Positions 7,640-53,779 of a stretch of 64,000 bases of DNA are shown in pieces. Below the pieces are notes generated by a model, which saw only the letters and a program-made list of their open reading frames with translations, did no database searches and was not told the DNA's origin. Both the position numbers and the translations under genes were made by a program. Within the stretch, counting starts at the first letter, position 1, and each line of letters begins with the position of its first letter. Location: assembly GCA_965243165.1 (NCBI GenBank), contig OZ251535.1, positions 1,602,246 to 1,666,245 of the forward strand, written 5' to 3'. The stretch comes from Candidatus Spongiisociaceae bacterium (GTDB lineage Bacteria > Actinomycetota > Acidimicrobiia > Spongiisociales > Spongiisociaceae).

Positions 7640-8074
7640 TTATTTGTCCCTCCCGATCTCCAGGGTCAAGTAGTTCCGGTCGGTTTCTCTTCGGTAGCTG
7701 ATCTCGTCCACCATCGTCTTGATCAGGTAGATGCCCAGCCCTCCGATCGGCCGGGACTCCAGCGGGGAGTTCAGATCAGGCAGGGGAGCGTCGGTCAACG
7801 GGTTGAAAGCAGGGCCGTCGTCCGACAGCTCCACAACTACCGATTCCGGTTGAGAATCGATCGTTATCTCATACTCCTCCAATCCGTTTGCCCTCCCATG
7901 TGTAAGAGCATTGACCTCCAGCTCTTCGAGGACCAGATTGACCGTGTATACCAGCTTGGGGGGCCAGCCTTCCTTTTCGCCGAGCATGACTATCTCGGAG
8001 TACACGTGATCCAGCAAGGCGGAGTTGGTGTCTTCCGCCTTGAGATCGATCTTCAGAGAGAGCGAACCCTTCAA
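7640..8074 (-). CDS. Anti-sigma regulatory factor / serine protein kinase (RsbW/SpoIIAB-like GHKL)
   Basis: 144 aa. Motifs ...VNLVLEELEVNALTHG... and ...GGLGIYLIKTMVDE. Overlaps the upstream PP2C gene by 4 nt. Confidence 0.8.
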   Translation of the reverse strand: MKGSLSLKIDLKAEDTNSALLDHVYSEIVMLGEKEGWPPKLVYTVNLVLEELEVNALTHGRANGLEEYEITIDSQPESVVVELSDDGPAFNPLTDAPLPDLNSPLESRPIGGLGIYLIKTMVDEISYRRETDRNYLTLEIGRDK

Positions 8075-9243
8075 TTGCCGTCCTCGCTGTAGAACAAAGT
8101 CAGGCAGGTGATGTCGTCCGACTGCACGGTATCGCCGGCGAAGGCATGCACCGCTTCGAAGATCGCTCGGTTCGCCTCCTTGGAATTCTTGGGGGGTGAT
8201 CCCTTGAATACATCTTGGAAACGGTTCATTCCAAACTCTTCCTGATCGGCGTTCATCGCCTCGGTTACACCGTCGGTGTAGAGTATCAAAGTGTCTCCCG
8301 GCGAGAGGCTTATCGTGCTCTGGGGATAGGAGAGGCCGGGAGCTATGCCCAGCGCCACCCCGCCGATGTAAGGGAGCAAAGTGGAGCTGCCGTCGCTGTG
8401 GACGATGAGGGGCGGGTTGTGTCCGCCGTTGGCGTATGTCAACACGCCGTCATCTGGAGAATAGACCGCGTATATGACGGTCACGAACAGGCCGGCTTCA
8501 TTGTCTTCGTGGAGCAGATTGTTGACATCCTCCATGACCTTGCCGGGTTCTTCGAGTCCGATGGCTGTTCCCTTCAGCAAGGTTCGGCTGGACATCATGA
8601 AGAGGGCAGCCGGCACTCCCTTGTCGGAGACATCAGCTATAGCTATACCAACGCGGCCGTCCTCCAGCTTGAAAAAATCATAGAAGTCACCCCCCACATC
8701 TCGGGCGGGCTCCATGTTGGCCCATATTTCATAGTTGATGTCCTTTGGAAAGCGGGTGGGCAGGATCGACTGCTGCATCTTGTTGGCGACATTCAACTCG
8801 TTTTGGAGAGTGATCAATTTGTCCCTGGAAGCGAGGGCTTCACGCCATTCGATCATGTGCTTCAAGGTGCGGTCGATGGTGTGCCGAAGGTCATCAAAAT
8901 CCAAAGGTTTGGTGACGAAATCGAAGGCACCTCGGTTCATGGCGGTTCTGATGTTCTCCATGTCGCCGTAGGCCGAGATTATTACCGAGCGGATGTTGGG
9001 GTCGACCTTAGGTATCTGTTCGAGCAAGGTCAAACCGTCCATCTGCGGCATGTTTATGTCGGAGAGAACCATATCTATGTCTTGGTAGTAGTTCAGCTTT
9101 TCCAGGGCATCGATGCCGTTGTGGGCAAAGACGAACTCATACTTGCCCCTTCTGATGGAGCGCCTCATACGCTGCAGGATGAGGGGCTCTACATCTGGCT
9201 CATCGTCCACGACCAGTATCTTGTATTTGTCCTTTAGTTCCAC
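8071..9243 (-). CDS. Response-regulator receiver fused to a PP2C/SpoIIE serine phosphatase (RsbU-like)
   Basis: N-terminal REC domain (ILVVDDEPD...DMVLSDINMP...DFVTKP). C-terminal PP2C domain (GGDFYDF...IADVSDKGVPAALFM...TDGVTEA). Noticeably lower GC (~50%) than the neighbouring genes. Confidence 0.85.
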   Translation of the reverse strand: MELKDKYKILVVDDEPDVEPLILQRMRRSIRRGKYEFVFAHNGIDALEKLNYYQDIDMVLSDINMPQMDGLTLLEQIPKVDPNIRSVIISAYGDMENIRTAMNRGAFDFVTKPLDFDDLRHTIDRTLKHMIEWREALASRDKLITLQNELNVANKMQQSILPTRFPKDINYEIWANMEPARDVGGDFYDFFKLEDGRVGIAIADVSDKGVPAALFMMSSRTLLKGTAIGLEEPGKVMEDVNNLLHEDNEAGLFVTVIYAVYSPDDGVLTYANGGHNPPLIVHSDGSSTLLPYIGGVALGIAPGLSYPQSTISLSPGDTLILYTDGVTEAMNADQEEFGMNRFQDVFKGSPPKNSKEANRAIFEAVHAFAGDTVQSDDITCLTLFYSEDGN

Positions 9244-9319
9244 TTTCTAGCTCACACTTCGGTATCGAGGGCTGGTGTTCCTGCTCGGCACAGGATTGAT
9301 CAGGAGTCGACCGGCTCGA

Positions 9320-9658
9320 CTAGCCCTGCAAGGCTGAAGACGCCGCGGCAAGGTCATCGTGAACATCTATGATCTGGTCGAAGCCGCTGATCATGAAGAT
9401 CTCGCGAACCATGTCGGACAGAGAGCAGATCGCGAACTTCTTGTCCTTTTGCTTGAGGTCCTTGGCGATCAACAAGATGACCCTGAGGCCGGCGCTGCTG
9501 ATGTAGTCGAGGTTCTCGAAGTCCAGGATCACAGTGCCGTCCTCGGAGGTGATCACAGCTTCCACCGAGTTCTGGAATTCGGAAGCGTTGGAGCCGTCGA
9601 TGCGGCCGTCGGTCTTTACGACCAGCTTCCCGCCTTCTCTTTCCGTGTTGATATTCAC
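9320..9658 (-). CDS. STAS-domain anti-sigma-factor antagonist, second copy
   Basis: Motifs LDFENLDYISSAGLRVIL and ISGFDQIIDV. First gene of the minus-strand operon. Confidence 0.8.
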   Translation of the reverse strand: MNINTEREGGKLVVKTDGRIDGSNASEFQNSVEAVITSEDGTVILDFENLDYISSAGLRVILLIAKDLKQKDKKFAICSLSDMVREIFMISGFDQIIDVHDDLAAASSALQG

Positions 9659-11403: not shown

Positions 11404-11856
11404 ATGCTCGAAGCCCTGTTGTTCTTGCACATCCTCGGGGCGGCGGCCTGGTTGGGCGCCAACCTGGTGCGGGCCTTGGCCGGCCGGGCCTTTGCGAAGG
11501 GAGAAGACGCCGCCGCCGCCTCCTGGCACCGGACCACCATCACCGTCGGGCGGTTGATCCACACCCCGGCCGCCGTAGTGGTGTTCATCACGGGGTTCGG
11601 CCTGATCGGGATGTCGGAAGGCCGCTTCGAGATGACCGACCCCTTCGTGGTGGTCGGCATCATCGTGGTCGTGGTGGGGGCGGTGCTCGGCATGGCCGTG
11701 CTGGGCCCCAACGGAGAGCGGATCGCCTCCGCCTACGAGCAGGGCGACCGCCAGCTCGCCGAAACAGTGGCCCGCCGCTCGAGCGTGGTCGGATGGTTCG
11801 ACACCGCATTGGTCGCCTTCGCCACCCTGGTCATGGTGCTCCACTGGGGCGCCTGA
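11404..11856 (+). CDS. Hypothetical integral membrane protein (4 TM, DUF2269-like)
   Basis: 150 aa and highly hydrophobic, with host-like GC. Confidence 0.5.
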   Translation: MLEALLFLHILGAAAWLGANLVRALAGRAFAKGEDAAAASWHRTTITVGRLIHTPAAVVVFITGFGLIGMSEGRFEMTDPFVVVGIIVVVVGAVLGMAVLGPNGERIASAYEQGDRQLAETVARRSSVVGWFDTALVAFATLVMVLHWGA

Positions 11857-11892
11857 GGTTCGTCATGCTCAAGGCCTGATCGAAGCGGCCGG

Positions 11893-12339
11893 TCAGATAG
11901 TTTTTCCGCCGCACTTCCGCACCCTCGGTAAAAGGGCTGTGCCGTTGGCCTGCCGCAGTGGTCCATACCGCCTTGTGTCTACTCTTCTTCTATACTTGTA
12001 GGCCAACAAAACCTGTGGTCTGTATGATCCAAGTTCGCCGAACTGCTCGGAATTTTCAGCTATAATATTCAAACCCGATTGTACTTGTTCCCAAGCCTTC
12101 TTACGCAGTTGTCTCTTTATCTCTATTACAAACCACTCGTATCTGTTGTTATATTTTCTTAGTACAAGAAGGTCTGGTTTCTTCGTTCCTTTTTCAAGAA
12201 ATGACTGGCATTTATCACAATCTATAGCCATCAGGAATCCCTGGAAGTCAAGGACACATTCTTGATGATCTATAGGGTTGCCGGAAATCAAGCACCCGTG
12301 TTGAAAGTGGATGGCACGTAGGTGCTCTACTTCTATCAC
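11893..12339 (-). CDS. Small protein with a PD-(D/E)xK-like nuclease core, translationally coupled to the upstream AAA ATPase (candidate defence effector)
   Basis: 148 aa in a low-GC (~40%) segment. A GTG start overlaps the ATPase stop (GTGA). Contains ...KPDLLVL...YEWFVIEIKRQ.. (D...ExK). Cys/His-rich N terminus (HFQHGC...H.EC...CDKC). Confidence 0.55.
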   Translation of the reverse strand: MIEVEHLRAIHFQHGCLISGNPIDHQECVLDFQGFLMAIDCDKCQSFLEKGTKKPDLLVLRKYNNRYEWFVIEIKRQLRKKAWEQVQSGLNIIAENSEQFGELGSYRPQVLLAYKYRRRVDTRRYGPLRQANGTALLPRVRKCGGKTI

Positions 12340-13790
12340 GCTAGTAGATCTAATAGATCTGCTGTGTCTTCTGACAGCTCGTTGGCGACCTCAAGGTACT
12401 CGTCTTCGGATATACCCCAGTCAGGCTCAATTATTTCTTGAGTGACCCGAACAGGTCCAGCAGATTGGGAGTGTTGGAACCTATATACAGCTATATCATC
12501 AATAGCAATGTGCTCAGTACCTGGATATGTATCAGTATTCTTATTTAGTTTATTCTTCAATTGCCCCCGCAGGATACAATTCGATAACTCATGAAGTAAT
12601 ATCGAACTGTGTGTTGCACATACCACCTTTATGCCCTGGTTGACCAGGCCGACCAAGACTCGGGCAACGAGTCGAATGGCCTCGGGATGCAAATGTGATT
12701 CTGGTTCATCGATGATGAGCAGATCGTTGGGTGATACGAGGTGTTCCATCCACATGGCTAGGGGAGCAAGGTCCGCTACCATTGAAGAAGCGCGATGGAC
12801 CGCGATCCTGTGTCCATCTTGTTGATATTCCAGGGTAGGGACCATATTCTCCGCTGATCCTGCCCGGATACTGCCCCCCATGACTTCTCTCAATAGAGTT
12901 TGTGTGCCAGTTGTATCGGATTTGTCATCTCTGCGGGATCTAGTCTGGGAGTGTGGTCGGCGCGAGCCTATTATATTCGCCAATGACGAGACGAAATCCA
13001 AGGCGACTCCACCGAGTGAGGAGTCAGGAATTTTGGACAAGCCAAATCGCTTTTTGTCGAGATCCAAGCGCAATTTTATCACATCGGTCCACGCATTGAG
13101 CAAACCTGATCTTCCGGCTGGCAGATAATGTGCCTTACCATTTAGGCCTATGCGGCGAAAAAACTCACTCCAGACCGTGCTTGTTATAAGAAAAGATATC
13201 TCCCGATTACGTATCCCTTTGTCTCCCTCCTTTTTACTCATATTCTGCCAAAACATGAACTCGGATCGGATGTAATTACCTGACTTGTCCAAAGTAAGAA
13301 ATTTGTCTGGCACTTTAAGCGGACGCAGGGATCCAGTTTCAGCATTTTTGAAAAGACAAGTTCTCGCTTTATCTATTAGATCTTGATGGAGTTCGACCTT
13401 TATTTCTGTTGGTTGGTCCCATCTTGTTATATCTCCTAGGTCTGGTACTCCAAAATATTCCAGTAGATAATTCTGGAGCTCATCCCCGGAGTTATTGAGT
13501 AGGTTATTGATCCAATAATTGGCTTTATCTTCTAGCTCAGACGGAAACTTAAATGGATACTCGGAAGCAGTCTGTGCTGCTCGCAATAGGAGCTCTATTT
13601 CATCATCATCTAGGGCGTCTAGCAAGCCATAGGGCTTTACTGCTTTGTGGGTTGCATAGATAGCCTGGGCAAGGTAGGTCTTGCCCGTATTGTTCTTTCC
13701 TATCAGCACAGTGAGAGGCTTCAGCTCGACGTCGGCGTGTTCGATAGGGCCGAGATTCTCGACCACGAGTCTGAGATTGGTTGCGCCCAT
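12336..13790 (-). CDS. AAA_21/ABC-type (OLD/PtuA/AriA-like) ATPase, candidate anti-phage defence ATPase
   Basis: Walker A LIGKNNTGKT. Walker B with the diagnostic LLIIDEPESHLHP. His-loop VCATHS. ATG at 13790 preceded by a ggaaggaaggga RBS (the track's 13808 start is a TTG). Low GC relative to its flanks. Confidence 0.8.
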   Translation of the reverse strand: MGATNLRLVVENLGPIEHADVELKPLTVLIGKNNTGKTYLAQAIYATHKAVKPYGLLDALDDDEIELLLRAAQTASEYPFKFPSELEDKANYWINNLLNNSGDELQNYLLEYFGVPDLGDITRWDQPTEIKVELHQDLIDKARTCLFKNAETGSLRPLKVPDKFLTLDKSGNYIRSEFMFWQNMSKKEGDKGIRNREISFLITSTVWSEFFRRIGLNGKAHYLPAGRSGLLNAWTDVIKLRLDLDKKRFGLSKIPDSSLGGVALDFVSSLANIIGSRRPHSQTRSRRDDKSDTTGTQTLLREVMGGSIRAGSAENMVPTLEYQQDGHRIAVHRASSMVADLAPLAMWMEHLVSPNDLLIIDEPESHLHPEAIRLVARVLVGLVNQGIKVVCATHSSILLHELSNCILRGQLKNKLNKNTDTYPGTEHIAIDDIAVYRFQHSQSAGPVRVTQEIIEPDWGISEDEYLEVANELSEDTADLLDLLA

Positions 13791-13862
13791 GTCCCTTCCT
13801 TCCGACAACAGCTTAGCCTGTCCTTGGGGCGTATTGGCTCTATGTCAGCCCGAACGCCCAGT

Positions 13863-14579
13863 TTATTGCGGAAGGCTGCGGATGGTCTCGAGGGCGATCC
13901 TCACCATGCCGTCGAAGGTGCGCTCCCGCTCGTCGGGGGAGGAGGCTTCGCCGGTGACGAGGTGGTCGGAGACGGTAACGACGGCCAGCGCCCGCGCCCG
14001 CTCCTCGGCGGCGATGGCGTACAGCCCGGCCGCTTCCATCTCCACCGCCAGCACCCCCATCCGCTGCCAGATCTCGAGGGCGTTGTCGTAGGTGTTGTAG
14101 AACAGGTCGGAGGTGTGGAGGTTGCCGACGCGGGCCTCGATGCCCAGCCGGCCGGCGGCGTCGGCGGCCGCCCGCAGCAGCCCGAAGTCGGCGGTGGGGG
14201 CGTAGTCCCATCCGTTGTAGCGCCGGCGGTTGACGGTCGAGTCGGTGCAGGCGCCGATGGCCAGGATCGCATCCTTCATCTTCACGTCGGGGGAGATGCC
14301 GCCGCAGGTGCCCACCCGGATGAGGTTCTTCACCCCGTAGGTGCGGATCAGCTCGGTGATGTAGATGGACGCCGACGGCACCCCCATGCCGGTGCCCATC
14401 ACAGACACCGGAACGCCCCGGTAGGAGCCGGTGAACCCCAGCATGTTGCGGACCGAGGTCACCTCCGCCGCGTCTTCGAGGAAGGCCTCGGCTATGTAGC
14501 GGGCGCGCAGCGGGTCGCCCGGCAGCAGGATCGACTCTGCGAACGCCCCTTCGGGGGCCGATATATGGGGGGTGGCCAC
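13863..14579 (-). CDS. deoD: Purine nucleoside phosphorylase, DeoD type
   Basis: 238 aa. Motif [12 protein letters not shown]...VGTCGG...MEAAGLY, hallmarks of the PNP/UDP family 1. Confidence 0.9.
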
Positions 14580-19089: not shown

Positions 19090-22000
19090 ATGGGCAACCC
19101 AGGTAGATCAGTTTCCCAGAGATGGGAAGGTCCTGATGGACCGCTCGGCGAGTACATCCGTAAGGAGACTCATAATACGTTAGAAGCGTATCGAAATCAA
19201 CCTAACTATGTTGATAGAGATGGCAAGGCTGAGGAATCCAAGGCAAAAGGTGGTTACGCTGGCCGTCAGTTGTTAGAGCTGGTTCAGAACAGCGCCGATG
19301 CTTTGGAAGGAACCAAAGGTGGACGTATAGAGGTGCATCTGGATCAAAATTATCTCTATTGTGCTGACAACGGCAATCCTATCGGCAAAGACGGTATAAC
19401 CGCTTTGATGTTTTCCTATCTGTCAACCAAACAAGGAGTGAACCAGATCGGCAGGTTTGGATTAGGTTTTAGATCGGTGCTAGAGATTACAGACAGTCCA
19501 GAATTCTTTTGCCGTGCGGGGTCCTTTGGTTTTTCTAGATCACGTGCCAAAGAAAAAATTGAAGACTTTTATCCCGATGCTCAATACTATCCTGTTTTGA
19601 ATTTGCCATTTCCGTTAGCACCTGAGCCAGAGTTCGAAAGTGATCCAATCCTGAAAGGACTTAGTACGTGGGCGATGAATATTGTTCGCCTTCCTTTGAA
19701 GCCAGGCGCGGGCGATGGTCTTATCAAACAGATAAGATCGTTTCCATCTGAATTGCTGTTATTCGTTGAGCATGTGAAGGAGATGAAGCTTTCAATGAAA
19801 GAATATTGTTCTAAGGTGACTCTTGAAAGAGTTGATGACTTATATCTTCTCCATAAGGATGATGATCACAGTCTTTGGAAACTTTTTGAGTGCATCTATG
19901 AGCTATCTGACGAGGCTTTAGAAGACGCGAAACCAGTTTATGAAGAGGACAGTGTCCTTATCACCTGGGCTGTACCAATTGATCGGATGAACGCTCCGAG
20001 TTATAAGAATTTTTGGATTTTCTTCCCTACGAAAACAGCAAGTCTTGTAGCAGGTATTCTCAATGCTCGCTGGAAGCCACATGAAGACCGTCATAACCTA
20101 CTATCAGGGGCTTATAATAAAGAACTTATTGATGACACGGCTGATCTTATTATCGACTATTTAGATCAGCTTTCCACTGATGATGATCCAGCTCAACATT
20201 TGGATGCCTTACCGCGCCGACTTGAATCCGGTGATAGTGCACTCACAAATCAACTCCGTGACAAGCTATATTCTGGTCTAGTAGAGCATGAGGTGGTTCC
20301 AGATCAGGATGGCCAATTGCAGAAGATTCGAGACATTTCATATCCGCCGATCAATCTGCCAGTAGAGGCACTAAATATGTGGTCCGATTGCAAGGTTCGA
20401 CCTTCAGAATGGCTCCATCATACGGCTCGTACTCGTACAAGATTCTCGGTTATAGAAAGGATATTCGAATTTGCTAAAAATGGTCGGAGTAGTTTGCTAT
20501 ATTCATATTTACAAATTGGAAGTTCCAGACATGTCCCGGTTTCTAGCCTATCCGAATGGTTGGAGGCATTGGTAAATACTGCTAGCTCGGAAGAAGATTC
20601 TGTTCACGCTTCAATAGTTGCTGTCCAGATTGCTGCTATATTGATTGACGATGATAAATGGCAGGACACAGAATTTGGTAATATCTTGCTTTCAGCTAGT
20701 AATAACTGGTGTCTTCTTGATGCAGATAGTCTCTTTTTGGGCGGAGAGGAGGAACATACAGATATGTCAAAAGCAAGCCTTGTGCATCCTCAATTGGAAT
20801 CCGATCCTGAAACCCTGAGAATCTTGCAAGAATATTTTCGATTTGATTCAATGAGCTCAGAATTAGCCTTCCGAAGAAAGGTTGAAGATCTGTACCAAAG
20901 GGGAGAATGGGAGAAACTTTGGACTATATCCCGAGATGCTAATGCATTGTGGTTACAGATTATTCAGGATCAGCCTTGCTGGTATAATGTTCTTCGGCTC
21001 CGTAGTGTGTCTGGTGAGTGGTATCGCTTTTCAGAGTTACTATTACCGGGATATATTGTGCCTAGTGATGGTAGTCGAGATGCCATAAATGCTATTGATA
21101 TAGAGTATCATCATCAAGACCTTGACCTTGTGCAAAAACTCGGCATGCCCGATAGACCGATAGAGAATTATGATTATAAAGAAATAGAATCTCGAGAGTA
21201 CAATAGGTATAAATATATTTGTTATAGACAATATCTTGACGAAGAATTCCTTTATTCACATCCACGAAGAAACTTGATGGAATTTGATGATCATATGGCG
21301 ATAGGTCCTCTTAAATTATTCGAATACCTGTCTGAAGAGGGTAATGCATTATACACAGAGGCAATCCTTGAATATGACAGCATATTTGAGCCTTGGATAT
21401 TAAGGTATAAAGGGAAATCTACAGAGTACCCCAGTAAGGAGTTTGACTCCCCAGCTATAAAAGCTCTGTTAGAGGATGGTCATATCAGAGTAGGTAATTA
21501 CGGTATTTCTAAACTCTCAGATGGACTAGGCATTAAACCAAAGTCTGAACATGTGAGACGTTGGCTTCTTGAGCACCGTAATTCTAGCCTCTTTCGCAAA
21601 GCTTTTGATATAGAGATAGTTCCAACTATTGAGTTGCTAGGCAAAAGCACGCCGGTTCTTTTAGTTGATGAATGGCCGGGATTAAAACAACATTTAAACC
21701 GTCTTGGATTATCAGACCTTGAATTGATACGGTGTAATCAAATTGGCTTTGATAGTAGCGGTTTTGAGCTAAGCTGTTGGGTAAAGGGAGATAATATATA
21801 TACTTTAGGTGGAGATGAAAGGGATGAACTCCAAGCGATAGTTCTAGAGATCAAGCTGTCGCTTACAGAATCCGAGATAACACAGATCATCTCTCGACAG
21901 ACGGCTGAGGATATCAAAGCAGCTCGCGCCAAAATCCGTAGTAAGTCAACGGATGCCGAACGGTTACTAGCCGCAGTGGGTGAAAGAGCATTGATACACG

Positions 22001-23541
22001 GACTTCCCGCGGCTTTAAGGCGGTACAGAGAGGAAGAAGATCAAGAAGCAGCTGGTATCAGGGCTGCTGAGGCAACTATAGCTATTTACGATGTCGGAGC
22101 TCTATGGGAATATCGAGACCTTCTCCAGGATTTAAGTCCACCAAGTAGATGGGCAGGAAGCCGGCCAGCAGTTGAATTCGTTAGATCGCTCGGGTTTAGC
22201 GAAGAATGGGCTGGACAATCTAGAAGAGGTCGTCCGCCATTTATTGAAGTTGACGGTCCATTTAATTTACCTAAGCTTCATGATTATCAGCGTAAGATAG
22301 CCAACAATCTGAGAGCGATGTTGCGACGAGATATTCTTGAAAGAAGACGCGGCCTCATAAGTCTGCCAACGGGGGCAGGTAAGACGCTCGTAGCAGTCCA
22401 AGCTATTGTTGAAGCAATACGCAACGATGAATATACGGGGGGCGTGCTTTGGATCGCCGATCGAGACGAGCTTTGTGAGCAGGCAGTAGAGGCATGGCGA
22501 CGAGTTTGGTCCAACATAGGAGTTGATGCGGCCCCTTTGCGTATTTCCAGATTATGGCAGGGTAATAAGAATCCTACACCAGTGGGCTTTCAGCATGTCA
22601 TCGTTGCATCTATACAAACACTGAATAGTCGGGTGGTCAGGCAATCTGAAGATAGTAGATTTCTTGAGGCCTTCAAGTTAGTGGTATTTGATGAAGCACA
22701 TCATTCAATTGCACCTAGCTATACACAGGTTATGGCTAAACTTGGATTGACCTTTAGGCGAAAAGAAGATGAACCCTTCTTGATCGGACTGACTGCTACA
22801 CCATACCGCGGGCACAATGAGGAGGAAACACAGCGTCTAGCTAAACGCTATGAGCAGAACAGACTAGATGCTGGGGCTTTTTCAAGTGCTTATGTAGATC
22901 ATTTTTCAAGTGCTTATGCAGATCAAATGACTAACCAACTGCAAGATACAAGAGTCTTGGCGTTCGCCGATCATGAAACTATTGAAGGAGGTGATTTTAC
23001 TCTCACTAAAGAAGCATTACAAGAAATGCTTGAAAAAGGAGTTGCTTGGCTCCCGCCAAGCTTTGAAATTGCGATGGGACTAGACCGTGATAGAACACGG
23101 CGTATTCTTAGGGCGTACGATGAACATATTCGCGGCCAAGGCTGGCCAACACTTATTTTTGCTACTTCAGTAGACCATGCTAGAACATTGGCTGCTCTGC
23201 TTAATGAAGCTGGAGTAACTGCAAGGTCAGTAGATGGAACTACCCCGCATGTGGTTCGTCGTAAAATTGTCAAAGATTTTAGGGCTGGTCAAATTGAGGC
23301 ACTAGTGAACTATAATGTGTTTACTGAGGGGTTTGATGCTCCGCAAACGCGGGCGATCATGGTAGCACGTCCTGTCTATAGCCCCAATCTATATTTCCAG
23401 ATGATCGGGCGAGGTTTACGCGGGCCAAAAAACGGCGGCAATGAAAGGTGCTTGATCCTCAACGTCAAGGACAACATTGTGAACTACGAGGAGAAGCTTG
23501 CTTTCACAGAGCTGGATTGGCTTTGGGCAGACGGACATTGA
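19090..23541 (+). CDS. Giant (1483 aa) fusion protein with an N-terminal MORC/sacsin-type GHKL ATPase, a ~700-aa uncharacterised middle region and a C-terminal DEAH-box SF2 helicase (ResIII-like); candidate single-gene defence/restriction protein
   Basis: Low GC (~42%) against ~69% flanks. N-terminal Bergerat-fold motifs LELVQNSADA...DNGNPIG...GRFGLGFRS. C-terminal helicase motifs: I (PTGAGKT), II (VFDEAHH), III (TATP), VI (QMIGRGLR). Confidence 0.8.
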   Translation: MGNPGRSVSQRWEGPDGPLGEYIRKETHNTLEAYRNQPNYVDRDGKAEESKAKGGYAGRQLLELVQNSADALEGTKGGRIEVHLDQNYLYCADNGNPIGKDGITALMFSYLSTKQGVNQIGRFGLGFRSVLEITDSPEFFCRAGSFGFSRSRAKEKIEDFYPDAQYYPVLNLPFPLAPEPEFESDPILKGLSTWAMNIVRLPLKPGAGDGLIKQIRSFPSELLLFVEHVKEMKLSMKEYCSKVTLERVDDLYLLHKDDDHSLWKLFECIYELSDEALEDAKPVYEEDSVLITWAVPIDRMNAPSYKNFWIFFPTKTASLVAGILNARWKPHEDRHNLLSGAYNKELIDDTADLIIDYLDQLSTDDDPAQHLDALPRRLESGDSALTNQLRDKLYSGLVEHEVVPDQDGQLQKIRDISYPPINLPVEALNMWSDCKVRPSEWLHHTARTRTRFSVIERIFEFAKNGRSSLLYSYLQIGSSRHVPVSSLSEWLEALVNTASSEEDSVHASIVAVQIAAILIDDDKWQDTEFGNILLSASNNWCLLDADSLFLGGEEEHTDMSKASLVHPQLESDPETLRILQEYFRFDSMSSELAFRRKVEDLYQRGEWEKLWTISRDANALWLQIIQDQPCWYNVLRLRSVSGEWYRFSELLLPGYIVPSDGSRDAINAIDIEYHHQDLDLVQKLGMPDRPIENYDYKEIESREYNRYKYICYRQYLDEEFLYSHPRRNLMEFDDHMAIGPLKLFEYLSEEGNALYTEAILEYDSIFEPWILRYKGKSTEYPSKEFDSPAIKALLEDGHIRVGNYGISKLSDGLGIKPKSEHVRRWLLEHRNSSLFRKAFDIEIVPTIELLGKSTPVLLVDEWPGLKQHLNRLGLSDLELIRCNQIGFDSSGFELSCWVKGDNIYTLGGDERDELQAIVLEIKLSLTESEITQIISRQTAEDIKAARAKIRSKSTDAERLLAAVGERALIHGLPAALRRYREEEDQEAAGIRAAEATIAIYDVGALWEYRDLLQDLSPPSRWAGSRPAVEFVRSLGFSEEWAGQSRRGRPPFIEVDGPFNLPKLHDYQRKIANNLRAMLRRDILERRRGLISLPTGAGKTLVAVQAIVEAIRNDEYTGGVLWIADRDELCEQAVEAWRRVWSNIGVDAAPLRISRLWQGNKNPTPVGFQHVIVASIQTLNSRVVRQSEDSRFLEAFKLVVFDEAHHSIAPSYTQVMAKLGLTFRRKEDEPFLIGLTATPYRGHNEEETQRLAKRYEQNRLDAGAFSSAYVDHFSSAYADQMTNQLQDTRVLAFADHETIEGGDFTLTKEALQEMLEKGVAWLPPSFEIAMGLDRDRTRRILRAYDEHIRGQGWPTLIFATSVDHARTLAALLNEAGVTARSVDGTTPHVVRRKIVKDFRAGQIEALVNYNVFTEGFDAPQTRAIMVARPVYSPNLYFQMIGRGLRGPKNGGNERCLILNVKDNIVNYEEKLAFTELDWLWADGH

Positions 23542-24093
23542 TGCTAGATGATCCTTTGCTGTTGGGCCAGACTGGCTCGTTCTGTCGGCGGCACTCTTGG
23601 CGGCGTGCGGCTCGGTGGCACAAGATATATCCCCGAGCCTCACGACCCACGAATCATTCCGTCTGCTTCCGAGGCGGCGGCGATTTCTCCGTCTTATGAC
23701 GTATTGACAGCCGATACCATGAGCTTTCAGGATGGTTTGGAGATAAACGGGCTCTTCGGAAACGAGAGAGGTAGGGGCAGGGCGGAGGTGTCATGGTCAG
23801 GTTTTGTTTGCGAGTGCCGCGTCCTGGTGTCCGTCCCGAGAGGGGCGGATCTGGTTGAAAGCCGCTGGCATGGACCATCTGGCAGCCTCACCCGCACCGG
23901 TAGATTCAGGTTTAGAGTGGCAACACTCAGCTCAGCTATCATTACCGGCTGTGATTGCATTCCCCTCTCCCGACTGGACATACCAGCCTCGCGCCGCCCG
24001 TGACCTACCCGACGTGATGGAAGCGCCGGACAGGCGGGGGCCGTTCGTGGTGCCCATCTCCCTCATTTTGAAGAGGCGGATTAGGGTGAAACG

Positions 24094-40454: not shown

Positions 40455-41702
40455 TCAGTAGAGGTGTCCTTCGAGGCCGAGCAGCCATAGGGTGAGGATG
40501 GTGAGGGCGAGGCCGGCTGCGGCGCAGATCGTCCAGTCGATCAGGCGGGCGGCGAGTCTTCTGCCGGTTTTGGCGGGCGGGCGGGTGGTGTTGCGGTTTG
40601 GTTGGCGGGGGTGGTCTGGGGTGACGGCGGTGCGGGTGATTTGGTCGTGCCAGCCGCGTCGTTGGGTGTTGAAGAGGGGGGAGGCGGCGGTGAGGAGGAA
40701 GATGGGTATTCCGGCTAGGGGGATGAGGAGGGGGAGGTGGAGGGCGGCCCATCTGGCGGTTGTGCGGGTCCATCGGGGGGTTTGTCTGCCGGGGGTGCGG
40801 ATGGTTTGGATTCGGGTGAGGCGTTTGCCGATCGTTCGTCCGAGGGCGGCGGTTGTCAGGGTTTCGTAGAGGAGGAAGGGCGCCAGGAACAGACCGGCTG
40901 CGGCCGGGTAGGCGAGGAGGATGAAGGCCAAGAGGTCGACTCCGTTCGTATCGCTTCCGGTGTCTTCGTCGTTGCCGCCGAGGCCGGTCCGCATCAGGAG
41001 TTGTTCCAGCAGCGGGTTGAGGACTGTGATGCTCACGTCGTTTGTGGTTCCGTCTCTTCCCGCCGGGATGCCGGCGCGGATGCGGTCCAGCAGGTCCGCT
41101 TTCTTGGCGGGGGTGTCGACCACATCATGGAGTGCGACGGCAACTTCGATCTGTCCGGTTGTGATGTCTGGGGAAGACGTTATACCTGTTACCTCTTCGT
41201 AGCCGGATATGATGTCGTGAACGATCTGATGGCGTTTGGTGAGGCCTGCTTCGGTGAATCCCCGGTTTTCGATGATTCGGATGTCACGCGGGAAGGCTCG
41301 GACGGCTTCAACTGCCTCGGCGGGCGCTGTTCCGGTGAAGGATACAAACCCATTCACGCCGTCTTCGATCCAAGAACCTGTAAAGTCTTCCGGAAACTTT
41401 TCCCTGATTTGGTTGACCAAATAGCCGAACGGGCTTTGCCAGGCGTAATTCTCGATTGCTTCTTCGAGCGAGATGCCTTCCTGTTCTGCCAGAAATTCCA
41501 GGTCGCGGCAACGTTCTCCTGGAATTATTCCGGCGGCCAGCTGTTCGATTGGGTCCACTTTGGTCAGGGTGGTGGTAGTGACCAGAGTTCCGTATACGGG
41601 TGTACAGGTCCATGCGTTGCCGGCAGTCGGCATTGTGAGCAGGGATACCGCCAGCATTCCCAGCATCCACCCTGCCAGTGAGCTGCGCGTTCGGGTTGTC
41701 AT
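40455..41702 (-). CDS. Membrane protein with an N-terminal secreted domain homologous to the S1 protease pro-region, fused to a C-terminal RDD-family membrane domain (cassette A, gene 3)
   Basis: Signal peptide MTTRTRSSLAGWMLGMLAVSLLTMPTAGNAW. Residues ~50-230 align with the pro-region of protease 42889-44223 (EQEGISLEEAIENYAWQ...AFPRDIRIIENRGFTEAGL). C terminus carries RDD motifs (LGRTIGKRL...RRGWHD). The ATG overlaps the upstream gene stop (ATGA). Confidence 0.75.
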   Translation of the reverse strand: MTTRTRSSLAGWMLGMLAVSLLTMPTAGNAWTCTPVYGTLVTTTTLTKVDPIEQLAAGIIPGERCRDLEFLAEQEGISLEEAIENYAWQSPFGYLVNQIREKFPEDFTGSWIEDGVNGFVSFTGTAPAEAVEAVRAFPRDIRIIENRGFTEAGLTKRHQIVHDIISGYEEVTGITSSPDITTGQIEVAVALHDVVDTPAKKADLLDRIRAGIPAGRDGTTNDVSITVLNPLLEQLLMRTGLGGNDEDTGSDTNGVDLLAFILLAYPAAAGLFLAPFLLYETLTTAALGRTIGKRLTRIQTIRTPGRQTPRWTRTTARWAALHLPLLIPLAGIPIFLLTAASPLFNTQRRGWHDQITRTAVTPDHPRQPNRNTTRPPAKTGRRLAARLIDWTICAAAGLALTILTLWLLGLEGHLY

Positions 41703-42844
41703 GGGCCGCCTCGGTGTGCTTCGGAGGTTGGAACGACGATAGCGCCGGCGGCTTTGTCGTGCCATCCGCGCCGTTGGGAGTCGAAGAGGGGGGAGGCGGC
41801 TGTCAGGAAGAAGATGAGTATTCCGATGATGGGGAGTGCCAGGAGGGGAAGGTAGATCACAATCCATCTGATGCTGGCTCTCTTCCATCCTGGAACTCGG
41901 CCGTTGCCGATGCACACCACTCGGGTCTGGGTGAGAATTTTTCCGATCGTTTCTCCTCGAAGAGCAATCAGCGGCAACTCGTAGATGACCACCGAGGCTA
42001 AGACAGCAACGAAACCTATATGAAGTATAGATATAGCTATCCAGAGGTCGGATTCAGGTAACAGGCTCTGAACAGTAATCTGGAATGGTTCTATAAACGC
42101 AATACCTTTGTATATATCTATAAAAGTAGATCCTTCAAGTTCCAACAATCCTATCGACCATATCACAAGAGTGATCCCAGCTATTGAATATAGCAACCAG
42201 TCAATAGTTCGGGACAGGAACCGCTTATGCGTGGGAACTGAAAGAGAAACATTGTCCTGGATGGCCGGTGTTTTAGATGCTTGGGTAACAATTGTGCCCG
42301 CGATCTTGTCATGCCATCCGCGTCTTTGAGGGTCGAAGAGGGGGGATATAACTGTCAAGAGGAAAATTATTATTCCGATTATAGGAACCAGAAGAGGAAG
42401 ATATATTATCGCCCATCGCACGCTGGACATCTTCCATCCCGGAACGCGGCCGTTACTGTTATGAGTTACTTTGATTCCCATCATTATCTTCCCGATAGTC
42501 TGACCCCTGGCGGCGGTCATCGGAAGTTCATATAGAAGCGATGGAACCAGTAACAGGATTACACAGGCTAAGTGTATAGCAAAAATGGATAACCAAGGTT
42601 GAAAGTCAGGTACAGCATAAGTCTCAAACCATAATCTATAGGATTGTGAAGGAACTGAATCTCCACCTCCCAAGCCCACATAAGTTCTTGTAAAGCCGGT
42701 TACCCAGATTAGAGAGGACATCCCCCAGATCAGAGAGGACATCCAAAGCCAGATGCCTATAACAACATATAGTAACCAATCAATACATCGAGCTAATATG
42801 CGCCCTATCGATTCAGATTGATTGATACCGATAAGGCTCGCCAT
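41699..42844 (-). CDS. Tandem RDD-domain integral membrane protein (cassette A, gene 2)
   Basis: Two RDD units (GQTIGKIMMGIKV...RRGWHDKIAGT and GETIGKILTQTRV...RRGWHDKAAG) with multiple TM helices. Low GC. Confidence 0.75.
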   Translation of the reverse strand: MASLIGINQSESIGRILARCIDWLLYVVIGIWLWMSSLIWGMSSLIWVTGFTRTYVGLGGGDSVPSQSYRLWFETYAVPDFQPWLSIFAIHLACVILLLVPSLLYELPMTAARGQTIGKIMMGIKVTHNSNGRVPGWKMSSVRWAIIYLPLLVPIIGIIIFLLTVISPLFDPQRRGWHDKIAGTIVTQASKTPAIQDNVSLSVPTHKRFLSRTIDWLLYSIAGITLVIWSIGLLELEGSTFIDIYKGIAFIEPFQITVQSLLPESDLWIAISILHIGFVAVLASVVIYELPLIALRGETIGKILTQTRVVCIGNGRVPGWKRASIRWIVIYLPLLALPIIGILIFFLTAASPLFDSQRRGWHDKAAGAIVVPTSEAHRGGP

Positions 42845-42888
42845 TAGTTACTCCTTTCCTTGTGTTATTTTGTGCTTCATAATTGTGT

Positions 42889-44223
42889 TTATGAAGTAGC
42901 TACTGTCCAGCCTGGGAAGGCATCATCAATGTGATGAACCGGTGTAAAAAGATCCCGACGTTTTAAGCCAAATATCCAGTTGCCACTGTGAATACCGTAT
43001 GCAGTGGTTCCATGAAACCAAGGGCCTCCAGAATCACCTCCTCTGGCCTTTCTATTATGCATAGCAACCAGCTTTCGTCCTTCAGGATAGTATACGCTGC
43101 CCCTGTATACTCTGTCTACAGTGTAGCCGCTAGATTTCCCATATTTTCGCAACCATTGGCCTTCCATTGGTACTCCAGTAGATTCAACAAACTGATAATC
43201 GTTTGGTCCGCTGTCGTAACGAAATTCGTTCACAAGGGTATAGCCAGAAGGAACAGAATGTCTCTGAAGGTCCCCCCATTCTCCTTGATGTTCTATCCCC
43301 CAACCTAGCCGAAGATAAATAGAGCCGTCAATTAATCTTTGATTATTGCCACAGTGTCCTGCAGTAGAAATATGTCTCCTTCCACTCGTATGTTCAAGAA
43401 CAAAGCCCACTGTGCATGTGCTGAGATGCATTCCTCCTGTTACATCCTCATCTCCCCCGCCAGGAGTGGAGGTTACAATATTGAAAAGAACGTCTTTATT
43501 AGTCCCAGTACTGGCAACACTCCCGACTGGAAGGTTAGCTTGGAGAAGATCAAGCATAGATGTCTTCTCCTCAGGAGTAGATTCTGAGTTTTTTAGTACT
43601 ACTTCCACGGTTAGTAGTCCAGTTCCGATATCGTAGGTTGAGGCGGCTGTATCTATATTATCGTTGCCTATCACGCTATTATGAACTGAATCGAGACGTT
43701 GTCTAAGATCGGCTTCGGTGAAGCCCCGGTTCTCGATGATCTGCACGGCACGCGGGAAGGCCCGGATGGAACTCGCAGCACCGGCGGGCGCTGTTCCGGA
43801 GAAGGCCACCCAAGCTGTCAGATCTTCTTCGATCCGGGCTCCGGCGAAATCACCCGGATAATCTTGGCGGATTTCGTTGACCAAATAGGCGAGCGGGCCT
43901 TGCCAGGCGTACTTCTCGATCGCTTTGTCGAGTGAGATGCCTTCCTGTTCGGCCTGCCAGGTCAGCTGCTCGCGAAGCGCTTCGGATATTTCTCCCGCCG
44001 CGAACCGGGAAACCGGGTCGCTCGGGTTGCTCGGTGCCTTTTCGTCGGTTCCCCCTCCGCCGGAGGGTGCGCCGGTGCTGGGGGTTCCGAACCCGCCGTC
44101 GTCGGATCCGGGGGGTGAAACGGCCTGAACGGTCGAGGGGACGACCAGCGCCAACGCCAGCAACAGCAGGATGCCCGCCCTCGCCTTCGTGCGCCTCCGA
44201 ACTCTGCGTCTGCGGATCATCAT
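42889..44223 (-). CDS. Secreted S1-family serine protease, alpha-lytic protease/streptogrisin-like (S1E), with an N-terminal pro-region (cassette A, gene 1)
   Basis: Signal peptide, then a ~200-aa pro-region. Catalytic His in TAGHCG and Ser in GDSGGPWF. Paired Cys residues. Confidence 0.85.
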   Translation of the reverse strand: MMIRRRRVRRRTKARAGILLLLALALVVPSTVQAVSPPGSDDGGFGTPSTGAPSGGGGTDEKAPSNPSDPVSRFAAGEISEALREQLTWQAEQEGISLDKAIEKYAWQGPLAYLVNEIRQDYPGDFAGARIEEDLTAWVAFSGTAPAGAASSIRAFPRAVQIIENRGFTEADLRQRLDSVHNSVIGNDNIDTAASTYDIGTGLLTVEVVLKNSESTPEEKTSMLDLLQANLPVGSVASTGTNKDVLFNIVTSTPGGGDEDVTGGMHLSTCTVGFVLEHTSGRRHISTAGHCGNNQRLIDGSIYLRLGWGIEHQGEWGDLQRHSVPSGYTLVNEFRYDSGPNDYQFVESTGVPMEGQWLRKYGKSSGYTVDRVYRGSVYYPEGRKLVAMHNRKARGGDSGGPWFHGTTAYGIHSGNWIFGLKRRDLFTPVHHIDDAFPGWTVATS

Positions 44224-50567: not shown

Positions 50568-51050
50568 TCAGTAGAGGTGTCCTTCGAAGCCGAGCAGCCA
50601 TAGGGTGAGGATGGTGAGGGCGAGGCCGGATGCGGTGCAGATCGTCCAGTCGATCAGGCGGGCGGCGAGCCTTCTGCCGGCTGCGGCGGGCGGGCGGGTG
50701 GTGTTTCGGCTTGGTTGGGGGTCTGGGGTTACGGCGGTGCGGGTGATTTTGTCGTGCCATCCGCGTCGTTGGGGGTCGAAGAGGGGGGAGGCGGCGGTGA
50801 GGAGGAAGATGGGTATTCCGGCCAGGGGGATGAGCAGGGGGAGGTGGAGGGCGGCCCATCTGGCGGTTGTGCGGGTCCATCTTGGGGTTTGTCCGCCGGG
50901 GGTGCGGATGGTTTGGATTCGGGTGAGGCGTTTACCGATCGTTCGTCCGAGGGCGGCGGTTGCCAGGGTTTCGTAGAGAAGGAAGGGTGCCAGGAACAGG
51001 CCGGCGGCGGCCAGGTAGACGAGGAGCAACAGCACCAAGGGGTCGACGCC
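50568..51050 (-). repeat. ~480-bp direct repeat (3' end of the pro-region-RDD fusion gene). Copies at 40455-40935 (~90% id) and a partial third copy at 51712-51845
   Basis: Nucleotide alignment of the two cassette termini. The encoded C termini (…RTIGKRLTRIQTIRTPG.QTPRWTRTTARWAALHLPLLIPLAGIPIFLLTAASPLF...LGLEGHLY) are nearly identical. The segment is high-GC, unlike the rest of the cassettes. Confidence 0.75.
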
Positions 51051-53730: not shown

Positions 53731-53779
53731 TTTCTTTTTGCCCTCCTCGTCTCCTGCTATTACCTTTATAGCCGATGGT

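Follow-up and report, generated by a model that had tools for sequence, protein, structure and literature searches.

The stretch of DNA analysed here (the window) comprises 64,000 nucleotides of contig OZ251535.1 (positions 1,602,246 to 1,666,245) from a Candidatus Spongiisociaceae bacterium, and it carries on its minus strand, at 11893-13790, a two-gene cassette that encodes an OLD-type ABC ATPase of 484 amino acids and a partner of 148 amino acids with a predicted PD-(D/E)xK nuclease fold. By analogy with characterized relatives, the cassette is probably a two-subunit anti-phage module of the abortive-infection type, of the PD-T4-4 and WonAB kind. It is a real and well-delimited system of a known kind, an ABC ATPase with a small PD-(D/E)xK nuclease, and extends that kind without adding a new principle. 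What sets it apart is an effector family that current models do not capture, a Cys cluster that is conserved and migrates, and a locus that is fixed, trans-specifically polymorphic and modularly recombining.

The cassette and its boundaries

The two open reading frames (ORFs) of the ORF list lie on the minus strand exactly where the first-pass annotation, made from the letters of the window, had placed them. The genes and the elements that delimit them are the following.

12336..13790, minus strand: ATPase gene (484 amino acids), ABC/OLD-type, PD-T4-4_A-like putative sensor/regulator subunit; ORF, ATG and ribosome-binding site read, profile matches
11893..12339, minus strand: gene of the small PD-(D/E)xK-fold nuclease (148 amino acids), putative effector subunit, a divergent Cys-cluster relative of PDC-M47B/PD-T4-4_B
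12336..12339, minus strand: GTGA start/stop overlap of 4 bp (translational coupling), the GTG of the small gene lying over the TGA of the ATPase gene; read directly
13791..13862, minus strand: upstream boundary, a 72-nt spacer between deoD and the ATPase gene with the ribosome-binding site AGGAAGGGA (13792-13800); here identity with same-species haplotypes falls to 0.73-0.83
11857..11892, no strand: downstream boundary, a 36-nt spacer between the convergent DUF2269 and nuclease genes; identity to the related locus L002 is back at 99-100% within about 30 nt

The ATPase starts at the ATG at 13790, behind the ribosome-binding site, and a TTG at 13808 is a mere mechanical extension of the ORF. The resulting protein is identical to a public-collection protein from existing assemblies (P0012). 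Both genes are real rather than chance ORFs, because each has many homologues (at least 395 for the ATPase and 194 for the small protein) and their alleles give ratios of nonsynonymous to synonymous substitution (dN/dS) of 0.23-0.32. The 4-bp overlap bears out the translational coupling proposed for them.

The G+C content is 46.3% over 11893-13790 (41-52% in 400-nt windows), compared with 69-70% in the adjacent genes. The contrast with the flanks and the foreign composition relative to the host are thus as the first-pass annotation had described them, while its figure of about 40% was slightly low. In line with its description of a host membrane-protein gene and deoD as the neighbours, the flanking genes encode a DUF2269 membrane protein (11404..11856, plus strand), which converges on the small gene, and a protein of the PNP_UDP_1/deoD type (13863..14579, minus strand). 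A sigma-70-like promoter was searched for in the 72-nt spacer and none was found there. A G+C-rich, terminator-like hairpin at 11876-11896, followed by a T-run on the plus strand, overlaps the nuclease stop codon and may be the transcription terminator of the DUF2269 gene; one of its arms also pairs with 14026-14040 inside deoD, probably by chance.

The ATPase subunit

Pfam profile searches identify the larger protein as an AAA_15 (4.6e-20) and AAA_21 (1.8e-16) OLD-type ABC ATPase, as had been proposed. The best PADLOC profile is PD-T4-4_A (PDLC04033; 2.4e-46, 156.9 bits), which covers residues 13-482 of the protein on positions 2-451 of a model of 460, and PDC-M47A comes second (1.3e-34). The PADLOC matches to AriA (5.6e-22), HEC-02A, Old (1.8e-19; best stretch, residues 359-407) and GajA (2.6e-17) are limited to the nucleotide-binding core. 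The alignment with the bona fide PD-T4-4_A of an E. coli plasmid, at about 26% identity, runs from the P-loop to the final residues. NCBIfam gave sub-threshold matches only (PtuA, 31.6 bits versus a cut-off of 500), and the sequence search of the PDB reached OLD (6p74, 1.6e-7, the best) and PtuA only at the Walker B/D-loop block. Pfam found on this protein no Toprim nuclease domain of the OLD class 1/2 or GajA type, and its SMC_N and AAA_23 matches, confined to the P-loop region, fell below the cut-offs.

Motif conservation was scored on 35 homologues of 38-75% identity, and the variability of inserts and core was measured among 17 close homologues.

13677..13700, minus strand: Walker A/P-loop GKNNTGKT, residues 31-38, K37 the predicted catalytic Lys; G31, N33, N34, T35, G36, K37 and T38 invariant
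13104..13127, minus strand: ABC-signature-like YLPAGRSG, residues 222-229, with R227; Y222, L223, P224, G226, R227 and G229 invariant
12684..12722, minus strand: Walker B/D-loop block LLIIDEPESHLHP, residues 357-369, with E362; L358, E362, P363, E364, H366, H368 and P369 invariant, D356, L357 and D361 in at least 90%
12606..12617, minus strand: H-loop ATHS, residues 392-395, with H394; T393, H394 and S395 invariant
13161..13640, minus strand: variable insert 1, residues 51-210, candidate sensor region; mean pairwise identity 0.29-0.66 versus 0.8-0.94 in the ATP-binding core
12339..12500, minus strand: C-terminal extension, residues 431-484, candidate docking site of the nuclease, from the recombination breakpoint of loci L174/L175 and the analogy with WonA

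The motif order of OLD-type ABC ATPases is complete (GKNNTGKT at 31-38, YLPAGRSG at 222-229, IIDEPESHLHP at 359-369 and THS at 393-395). All the motifs quoted in the first-pass annotation were located, including LLIIDEPESHLHP at residues 357-369 of the ATPase and, in the small protein, PDLLVL at 55-60 and EWFVIEIK at 68-75. K37, R227, E362 and H394, matched by motif order alone, correspond to WonA K34, R182, E300 and H333, the mutation of each of which abolishes defence (PMC12137116). As far as can be read from these residues, the apparatus for ATP binding and hydrolysis is complete and conserved.

Outside this core, residues 51-210, 271-300 and 406-430 go down to 29-57% conservation, compared with 80-94% in the core. 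Between same-species alleles, the divergence is greatest in insert 1, which has insertions and deletions and a dN/dS of 0.27-0.32. This pattern agrees with the report that the OLD-type clade diversifies through its inserts and its C-terminal extension (PMC12137116).

The small partner

Searches of Pfam, NCBIfam and PADLOC with the 148-residue protein returned nothing usable, the Kdo (E 0.14) and SduA (E 0.029) matches included; the latter spans 26 residues of the PD..ExK core only and is far below significance, so that the protein does not belong to the DUF4263/SduA (Shedu) profile. There was no HNH match in these three libraries and no AriB, DUF4435 or Toprim match in Pfam or PADLOC, which upholds the earlier statement that the partner is neither of the PtuB nor of the AriB type. 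When the small-protein profile was run against PDB sequences, no match rose above chance level. The first database search found 11 relatives, all of them metagenomic, and none of the 194 proteins reached by a later profile search has a Pfam domain. HMMER over 1.84 billion representatives yielded 1826 clusters (50% identity) at E <= 1e-3, 315 of them at E <= 1e-30, nearly all being single-domain proteins of about 155-160 amino acids.

An alignment of 117 database sequences is the basis of both the structural model and the conservation counts. The AlphaFold2 model built from it has a predicted local distance difference test score (pLDDT) of 91.2 and a predicted template modelling score of 0.88, versus a pLDDT of 38.9 with the 11 close homologues alone. 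It consists of a helix (4-14), three short strands, strands 57-63 and 66-75, a helix (80-95) and a strand (106-114). In the model, the protein has the restriction-endonuclease-like alpha/beta core, with the D on strand 2 and the (D/E)xK on strand 3, and the D...ExK core recognized in the first-pass annotation thus falls within a predicted PD-(D/E)xK fold. The residues of interest are the following.

12208..12222, minus strand: D40-C41-D42-K43-C44, acidic pair and subfamily CxxC; D40 in 114/117, D42 in 113/117, C41 and C44 jointly only in the 11 members of the window subfamily
12172..12177, minus strand: P55-D56, the 'PD' of the core; D56 in 117/117, position 55 Cys in 105/117 and Pro only in the window subfamily
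12115..12123, minus strand: E73-I74-K75, the '(D/E)xK' of the core, on model strand 66-75; E73 in 117/117, K75 in 115/117
12085..12087, minus strand: Q85, in the helix after the ExK strand; 117/117, aligned by hhalign with the Q of PD-T4-4_B sequences
12292..12294 and 12256..12258, minus strand: C16 (69/117) and C28 (117/117) of the Cys cluster
11911..11913, minus strand: C143, candidate C-terminal ligand of the Cys cluster; 114/117

In the same alignment G89 is present in 114/117 sequences and position 23 is a Cys in 54% of them. Taken together, the model and the conservation indicate a restriction-endonuclease-like fold with an intact D42/D56/E73-x-K75/Q85 site. The closest structural neighbours of the model are the DNA endonucleases Upx, N.BspD6I, NucS and FokI, followed by XisH, Can2, AspBHI, SdaI, BsmI, Bse634I, HamA and Cfr10I and by Hna, CdiA-CT toxins, LlaBIII, PaqCI and McrC. 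The same architecture could also serve an effector that targets tRNA or rRNA instead of DNA, in the way that AriB of PARIS cleaves tRNA. The sequence itself does not discriminate between substrates. With DNA endonucleases as the strongest neighbours, an RNA target is in our view an improbable but live alternative.

The Cys/His set noted in the first-pass annotation is present (H11, H14, C16, C28, C41, C44 and C143). The conserved Cys residues, at positions 16 or 23, 28, 55 (or 41/44) and 143, reach both termini. In the window subfamily, the pattern is C16-C28-C41-C44-P55-C143: the 'CD' of the family is replaced by 'PD', and a CxxC lies 11-14 residues upstream. The CxxC looks like the migrated ligand of one conserved metal site that would staple the N- and C-terminal segments to the core, and the cluster may bind Zn or an Fe-S centre. 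In the iron-staple (4Fe-4S) nucleases such as AddB and Cas4, four Cys flank the nuclease core and bind an Fe-S cluster. The spacing here differs from C..CxxC..C, which we take to be their pattern, and AddB is a weak Foldseek match of the model.

Pairing with the ATPase and relation to known effectors

To describe the partners of the ATPase family, 80 genomic loci with ATPase relatives were collected, 78 of which have a callable ATPase ORF. An ORF of at least 60 amino acids, mostly of about 150-200, lies directly downstream in 72 of the 78, a 4-bp overlap being the commonest arrangement. Conversely, an ATPase is found directly upstream of every close homologue of the small gene, in most of the 78 loci and in two independently picked distant members; the latter two, chosen without ATPase-based sampling, follow an AAA_15/21 ATPase of about 508 amino acids with a 4-bp overlap. 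The pairing of the two genes is obligate.

The profile of the 11 close relatives matches 12 of the 72 downstream partners at E < 1e-12, and iteration reaches 67 of the 72. By BLAST single-linkage, the partners split into several groups, of which a large one matches PDC-M47B (up to 4.4e-63) and another matches PD-T4-4_B (1.3e-11). In hhalign comparisons, the window group is linked to the others with probabilities of 96.4% (the PDC-M47B-like group), 97.4%, 93.5%, 88.9% and 59.5% (a PD-T4-4_B-like group of three members), and every alignment is anchored on the D56 / E73-x-K75 core. The window family scores 78.5% against the PD-T4-4_B of a Vibrio phage and 35.8% against that of an E. coli plasmid, and both alignments to these bona fide B subunits share the motif order D..CD..(E/D)LK..Q. 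These profile comparisons place the partner as a remote member of the PD-T4-4_B/PDC-M47B effector superfamily, outside the PD-T4-4_B family as now modelled.

The two reference pairs are carried by mobile elements. In the E. coli plasmid pSCU-105-5 (NZ_CP051743.1, locus L171, 1352-3350), the pair matches PD-T4-4_A at 3.2e-123 and PD-T4-4_B at 1.1e-43; this 4.8-kb Col-type plasmid consists mostly of the PD-T4-4 pair, annotated as 'AAA family ATPase' and 'hypothetical protein'. In Vibrio phage 1.202.O (MG592573.1, locus L178, 1649-3680), the values are 6.4e-185 and 6.5e-18, the B subunit also matches PDC-M47B, and the pair, annotated as 'AAA domain protein' and 'hypothetical protein', lies between the CI repressor and the integrase of this P2-like phage. 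In the phage and plasmid collections, all relatives are distant, with at most 38% identity over partial alignments.

The small nuclease gene, with a GTG start, is uncalled in the public annotation of three related loci (L173, 9466-9912; L176, 6452-6901; L177, from 6452); it is intact to its stop codon in the first two, and in the third there is no stop within the stretch read. It is therefore likely that annotations miss members of the family.

Comparison with known systems

The first-pass annotation had suggested that the pair was undescribed. Since the ATPase is homologous to PD-T4-4_A over its full length (2.4e-46) and its partner falls in the PDC-M47B/PD-T4-4_B superfamily, this suggestion does not stand. 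Neither is the logic new: an OLD-type ABC ATPase with a small 'novel REase' is an architecture already published and experimentally validated, in PD-T4-4 and WonAB (PMC9519451, PMC12137116).

PD-T4-4, described in E. coli by Vassallo et al. (2022), protects E. coli from phage (PMC9519451) and forms higher-order complexes (EcPD-T4-4; bioRxiv 10.1101/2025.07.10.664194). In this two-gene operon, the ATPase gene precedes that of a small partner, which it often overlaps or abuts, and the cassette likewise has adjacent, co-oriented A and B genes with A upstream and a full-length match of the ATPase to PD-T4-4_A. The motif order D..(C/P)D..(E/D)xK..Q is common to the two partners, each of which is a small PD-(D/E)xK protein. 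Unlike PD-T4-4_B, however, the cassette partner has 148 instead of 190-210 amino acids, lacks the N-terminal region and has a Cys cluster, and the cassette hosts are uncultured high-GC bacteria, whereas PD-T4-4 is found in mobile elements of Enterobacteria or Vibrio. PDC-M47 (PDC-M47A and PDC-M47B) is also close: the ATPase matches PDC-M47A, and the PDC-M47B group is the one best linked to the window family, at the 96.4% given above. In contrast, the window partner has no direct match to the PDC-M47B hidden Markov model (HMM), and partners of that type have about 180-200 amino acids. PDC-M47 is a PADLOC candidate system, and no paper naming it was found in the literature searched.

WonAB, from the WASA-1 prophage of Vibrio cholerae, and the 'OLD-ABC ATPase + novel REase' operon of Krishnan et al. 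(2020) share with the cassette a deviant-motif OLD-type ABC ATPase and a small variant PD-(D/E)xK nuclease, in a comparison made on architecture and motif positions. WonAB acts by abortive infection and needs both genes, all the ATPase motifs and the nuclease Lys, and its ATPase mutants lose WonB (PMC12137116). The K71A mutation of WonB abolishes defence (PMC12137116), and this catalytic Lys is placed similarly to K75 here. WonB is predicted to bind the dimerised C-terminal extensions of WonA, and the insert and C-terminal regions differ between WonAB-type subfamilies (PMC12137116); the predicted docking on the extension agrees with the recombination breakpoint of the cassette described below. 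WonAB is prophage-borne, whereas the cassette is chromosomal, with no mobile-element genes among the flanking genes examined.

PARIS (AriA/AriB), Septu (PtuA/PtuB), Gabija (GajA) and the class 1/2 OLD systems have in common with the cassette the ABC ATPase clade, the DEPE-x-H-L-H block and a sensor ATPase that controls a nuclease. Their similarity to it is limited to the nucleotide-binding core, and the cassette effector is of the PD-(D/E)xK type, not Toprim/DUF4435 (AriB, OLD, GajA) or HNH (PtuB). Septu and PARIS, to which the first-pass annotation had likened the logic of the pair, are thus more remote from it than PD-T4-4 and WonAB. The resemblance to Shedu SduA and NucS-type DUF4263 proteins is restricted to the catalytic core and insignificant, and Shedu consists of one gene only and has no ABC ATPase.

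History of the locus and variation of its alleles

The order IclR - deoD - [ATPase - nuclease] - DUF2269 - PBP - STAS is present in five lineages: the window, L002, L003/L173, L174/L175 and L176/L177. The cassette had been described as inserted between its neighbours; its presence at the same deoD-DUF2269 site in the five lineages shows that any insertion is not recent. In all of them its G+C content is 44-48%, versus 64-70% around it, and it is lower than that of the flanks in 66 of 68 related loci, with a mean difference of 7.6 points. The main comparisons with the window are the following (dS, synonymous divergence; where two cassette values are given, they refer to its two genes).

L002: flanks 99-100% identical in nucleotides; cassette 59-90% in nucleotides, 73% and 76% in amino acids; dS 0.006-0.038 in the flanks, 0.66 and 0.46 in the cassette
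L174/L175: flanks 96-100% identical in amino acids; ATPase 71% and nuclease 95% in amino acids; dS 0.052-0.054 in the flanks, 0.064 in the nuclease, 0.55 in the ATPase
L176: flanks 71-85% identical in amino acids; cassette 63-64% in amino acids; dS 0.39-0.40 in the flanks, 1.5 and 1.2 in the cassette

For L002, dN/dS is 0.23 and 0.28 for the two cassette genes, and it stays at or below about 0.6 in every ATPase region, which indicates that both genes are under purifying selection. Positive selection was rejected as the source of the divergence, given that dN/dS is under about 0.6 everywhere and synonymous sites are strongly diverged. The combination of low dN/dS and high dS therefore points to alleles that are old, functional and exchanged, rather than rapidly evolved in place. 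Att-like direct repeats, tRNAs, integrases and Rfam families are all absent from the cassette borders; site-specific integration was accordingly discarded, and an exchange of alleles through homologous recombination was preferred. A search of the JGI metagenomes for an empty deoD site found no close relatives (best identity 75%) and no clean empty site: in the nearest locus, that of the more distant relative L091, another gene, of 358 amino acids, lies between deoD and DUF2269. Altogether, the locus behaves as a fixed immune hot-spot in which old AT-rich alleles are swapped by homologous recombination.

The L174/L175 haplotype divides the cassette. Its divergent block ends at about 12,470-12,520, within the C-terminal region of the ATPase, so that only the first ~430 codons are replaced; the ATPase tail and the nuclease share the history of the flanks (96-100% nucleotide identity). 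The position of this breakpoint agrees with the predicted docking of WonB on the C-terminal extension of WonA, and the sensor part can be exchanged independently of the effector and docking part. The nuclease of this haplotype has a nonsense codon, Q77*, just after the ExK motif, in two separate assemblies (L174, 6455-6901; L175, 2130-2576), which may reflect the inactivation of a mismatched effector after the swap of the ATPase body.

Conservation in synteny could suggest a housekeeping role, and it had been named beforehand as an observation that would count against a defence function. The pair does occupy the same locus in five lineages, which does not in itself imply housekeeping status: the locus is hypervariable, recombining and AT-rich, and in other phyla the pair is found at unrelated sites flanked by mobilome or defence genes. 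The corresponding explanation, a vertically inherited core locus for DNA repair or recombination with a RecF/RecN/SbcCD-like ATPase and a structure-specific nuclease (NucS, resolvase), is quite improbable in our estimation. Within one species, the cassette exceeds its flanks in dS by a factor of about 12-110, and in a distant relative by a factor of 3-4; its G+C content is 23 points under that of the genome. The site is occupied by another gene in L091, and a nonsense allele is tolerated. In addition, the pair occurs at unrelated loci in other phyla, and the SMC_N and AAA_23 matches are those below-cut-off ones of the P-loop region.

The neighbouring deoD gene raises a further alternative, in which the cassette would be part of a nucleoside-salvage operon or deoD would be a third, PNP-type effector. 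The gene lies only 72 nt upstream on the same strand, with no promoter-like site found in the spacer, and some defence systems, Cap17 for example, use PNP_UDP_1 domains as effectors (PMC10952713). Nevertheless, deoD has host composition (about 70% G+C), and its protein remains 96-97% identical across haplotypes that share only 71-76% identity in the cassette. In addition, the cassette is missing from 80 deoD loci of other metagenomes, and deoD is missing from the surroundings of related cassettes elsewhere. On its host G+C content, its lack of co-occurrence elsewhere and its conservation while the cassettes diverge, deoD was rejected as a third component, and we give this alternative very little credence.

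At 8071-9658 (minus strand), the window has another segment of reduced G+C content (52-57%), which encodes a response-regulator-SpoIIE/PP2C phosphatase and a STAS anti-sigma-factor antagonist. It is 99-100% identical in L002, and low G+C content alone is therefore no marker of variable DNA here.

Genomic context of related cassettes

The 103 neighbouring ORFs of 18 related cassettes include six more AAA_15/21 ATPases, three integrases and three ISL3 transposases. Three of these six ATPases match HEC-01A in PADLOC (best 1e-137). At other loci, close relatives lie head-to-head with a second ABC-ATPase system or beside RHH/DUF6036 genes. The remaining ORFs of the 103, the majority, are housekeeping genes.

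In three loci (L006, 188-2148; L010, 147-2513; L011, 3456-5419), the head-to-head system is AT-rich and consists of an ATPase of about 470 amino acids, 26-27% identical to the first, and a partner of about 175 amino acids; L010 has in addition a 130-aa ORF, and its 176-aa protein is a DUF6036 protein. The three ATPases that match HEC-01A are presumably the second ATPases of these loci. Just downstream of a distant member of the family (L180, 6477-11685), there are a 968-aa DUF1156 protein, NTP_transf_2/Polbeta, an IS1-like transposase and SocA_Panacea, a neighbourhood that resembles a defence or toxin-antitoxin island. Many of the named hosts are metagenome-assembled genomes (Candidatus Poriferisodalis, Spongiisociaceae, Poribacteria) whose names suggest, in our reading, that they live with sponges; Acidimicrobiia and Dehalococcoidia occur as well.

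Some of these data would also fit a selfish addiction module similar to toxin-antitoxin systems, in which the nuclease is a toxin restrained by the ATPase and loss of the module kills the cell, with no dedicated anti-phage role. Pfam labels AAA_21 as 'putative AbiEii toxin, Type IV TA system', the loss of the nuclease protein in WonAB ATPase mutants reveals tight coupling (PMC12137116), and some related cassettes have neighbours of the toxin-antitoxin type (NTP_transf_2, SocA_Panacea, DUF6036, RHH). The Q77* allele in the swapped-ATPase haplotype, seen in two assemblies, is what would be expected if a mismatched regulator made the nuclease harmful. However, toxin-antitoxin and abortive-infection roles are compatible, and the validated relatives PD-T4-4 and WonAB are phage defences (PMC9519451, PMC12137116). 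Addiction would also leave unexplained the variable, sensor-like insert and the long-lived allele diversity at a chromosomal site, and we regard it as unlikely.

Proposed function

We favour the anti-phage, abortive-infection reading of the cassette. Its defence-like population genetics, with flanks 99-100% and cassette 59-90% identical, was counted for it, and so were the ABC-ATPase systems, integrases and transposases beside related cassettes and the TmtA-like giant gene 5.3 kb away in the window. As in the homologous systems WonAB, PD-T4-4 and PARIS, a dimer of the ATPase would hold the nuclease inactive on its C-terminal extensions. The variable insert would sense a phage-derived cue, and the binding or hydrolysis of ATP would license or release the nuclease. 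The nuclease would then cut nucleic acid (DNA, possibly tRNA or RNA) and halt phage replication at the cost of the infected cell.

Several observations weigh against this assignment. The cassette ATPase is only about 26% identical to PD-T4-4_A and scores 157 bits, compared with 364-614 bits for true members. In PADLOC, the PD-T4-4_B and PDC-M47B models give no match to the window small protein at E <= 1, and the hhalign values for the three-sequence PD-T4-4_B-like group (59.5%) and for the E. coli PD-T4-4_B (35.8%) are weak; the link to the family is therefore transitive. Purified EcPD-T4-4 showed no cleavage in vitro of any of 11 DNA substrates, the majority of the genes around related cassettes are housekeeping genes, and the cassette itself occupies a conserved chromosomal site devoid of integrase, tRNA and flanking repeats. 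PD-T4-4/WonAB-type systems are validated defences, albeit with a prototype that is inactive in vitro.

A broader reading, which we put forward tentatively and consider rather doubtful as a whole, joins two proposals. The small partner would found an unrecognised, metal-cluster-stapled branch of PD-(D/E)xK effectors, one of about 1,800 clusters at 50% identity that lacks a model in Pfam, NCBIfam and PADLOC and whose Cys ligands migrate from one subfamily to another. The locus, in turn, would be a long-lived, trans-specifically polymorphic immune locus in which recombination puts together new combinations of a sensor module (the first ~430 residues of the ATPase) and an effector module (the nuclease with the ATPase tail), with mismatches resolved by inactivation of the nuclease. 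If so, sponge symbionts and related uncultured bacteria would share an AT-rich allele pool of a system that current defence finders miss.

The effector family (1826 clusters) is unrecognised by HMM libraries, and complete systems are therefore probably under-counted, especially in uncultured host-associated bacteria. With its 148 residues, the small protein is a minimal effector in which the catalytic set is clear, and its conserved Cys cluster could act as a metal site, either structural or regulatory. In addition, the natural 'domain-swap' haplotypes point to the C-terminal tail of the ATPase as the docking element and to its insert region as an exchangeable sensor.

Other AT-rich islets of the window

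A second AT-rich islet (40-52% G+C) lies 5.3 kb from the pair, at 19090-24003 on the plus strand. Its ORF of 1483 amino acids combines an N-terminal region similar to TmtA of Tiamat (PADLOC 2.1e-54, residues 21-456; weak Pfam SACS) with ResIII/DEAD/Helicase_C domains (residues 1062-1444) and is probably another defence gene; it is followed by a 151-aa ORF without family. In the syntenic locus L173, the next genes called beyond the 2-Hacid_dh gene are one of 262 amino acids without Pfam match and one of the MarR family.

Two more AT-rich islets (43-57% G+C), at 41699-44223 and 50568-55129 on the minus strand, gave no match in PADLOC. They carry paralogous cassettes, in which an RDD-family membrane protein (381, 377 and 415 amino acids) stands beside a protein of about 445 amino acids with a weak C-terminal trypsin-like match, and the second islet also has a 369-aa ORF without family.

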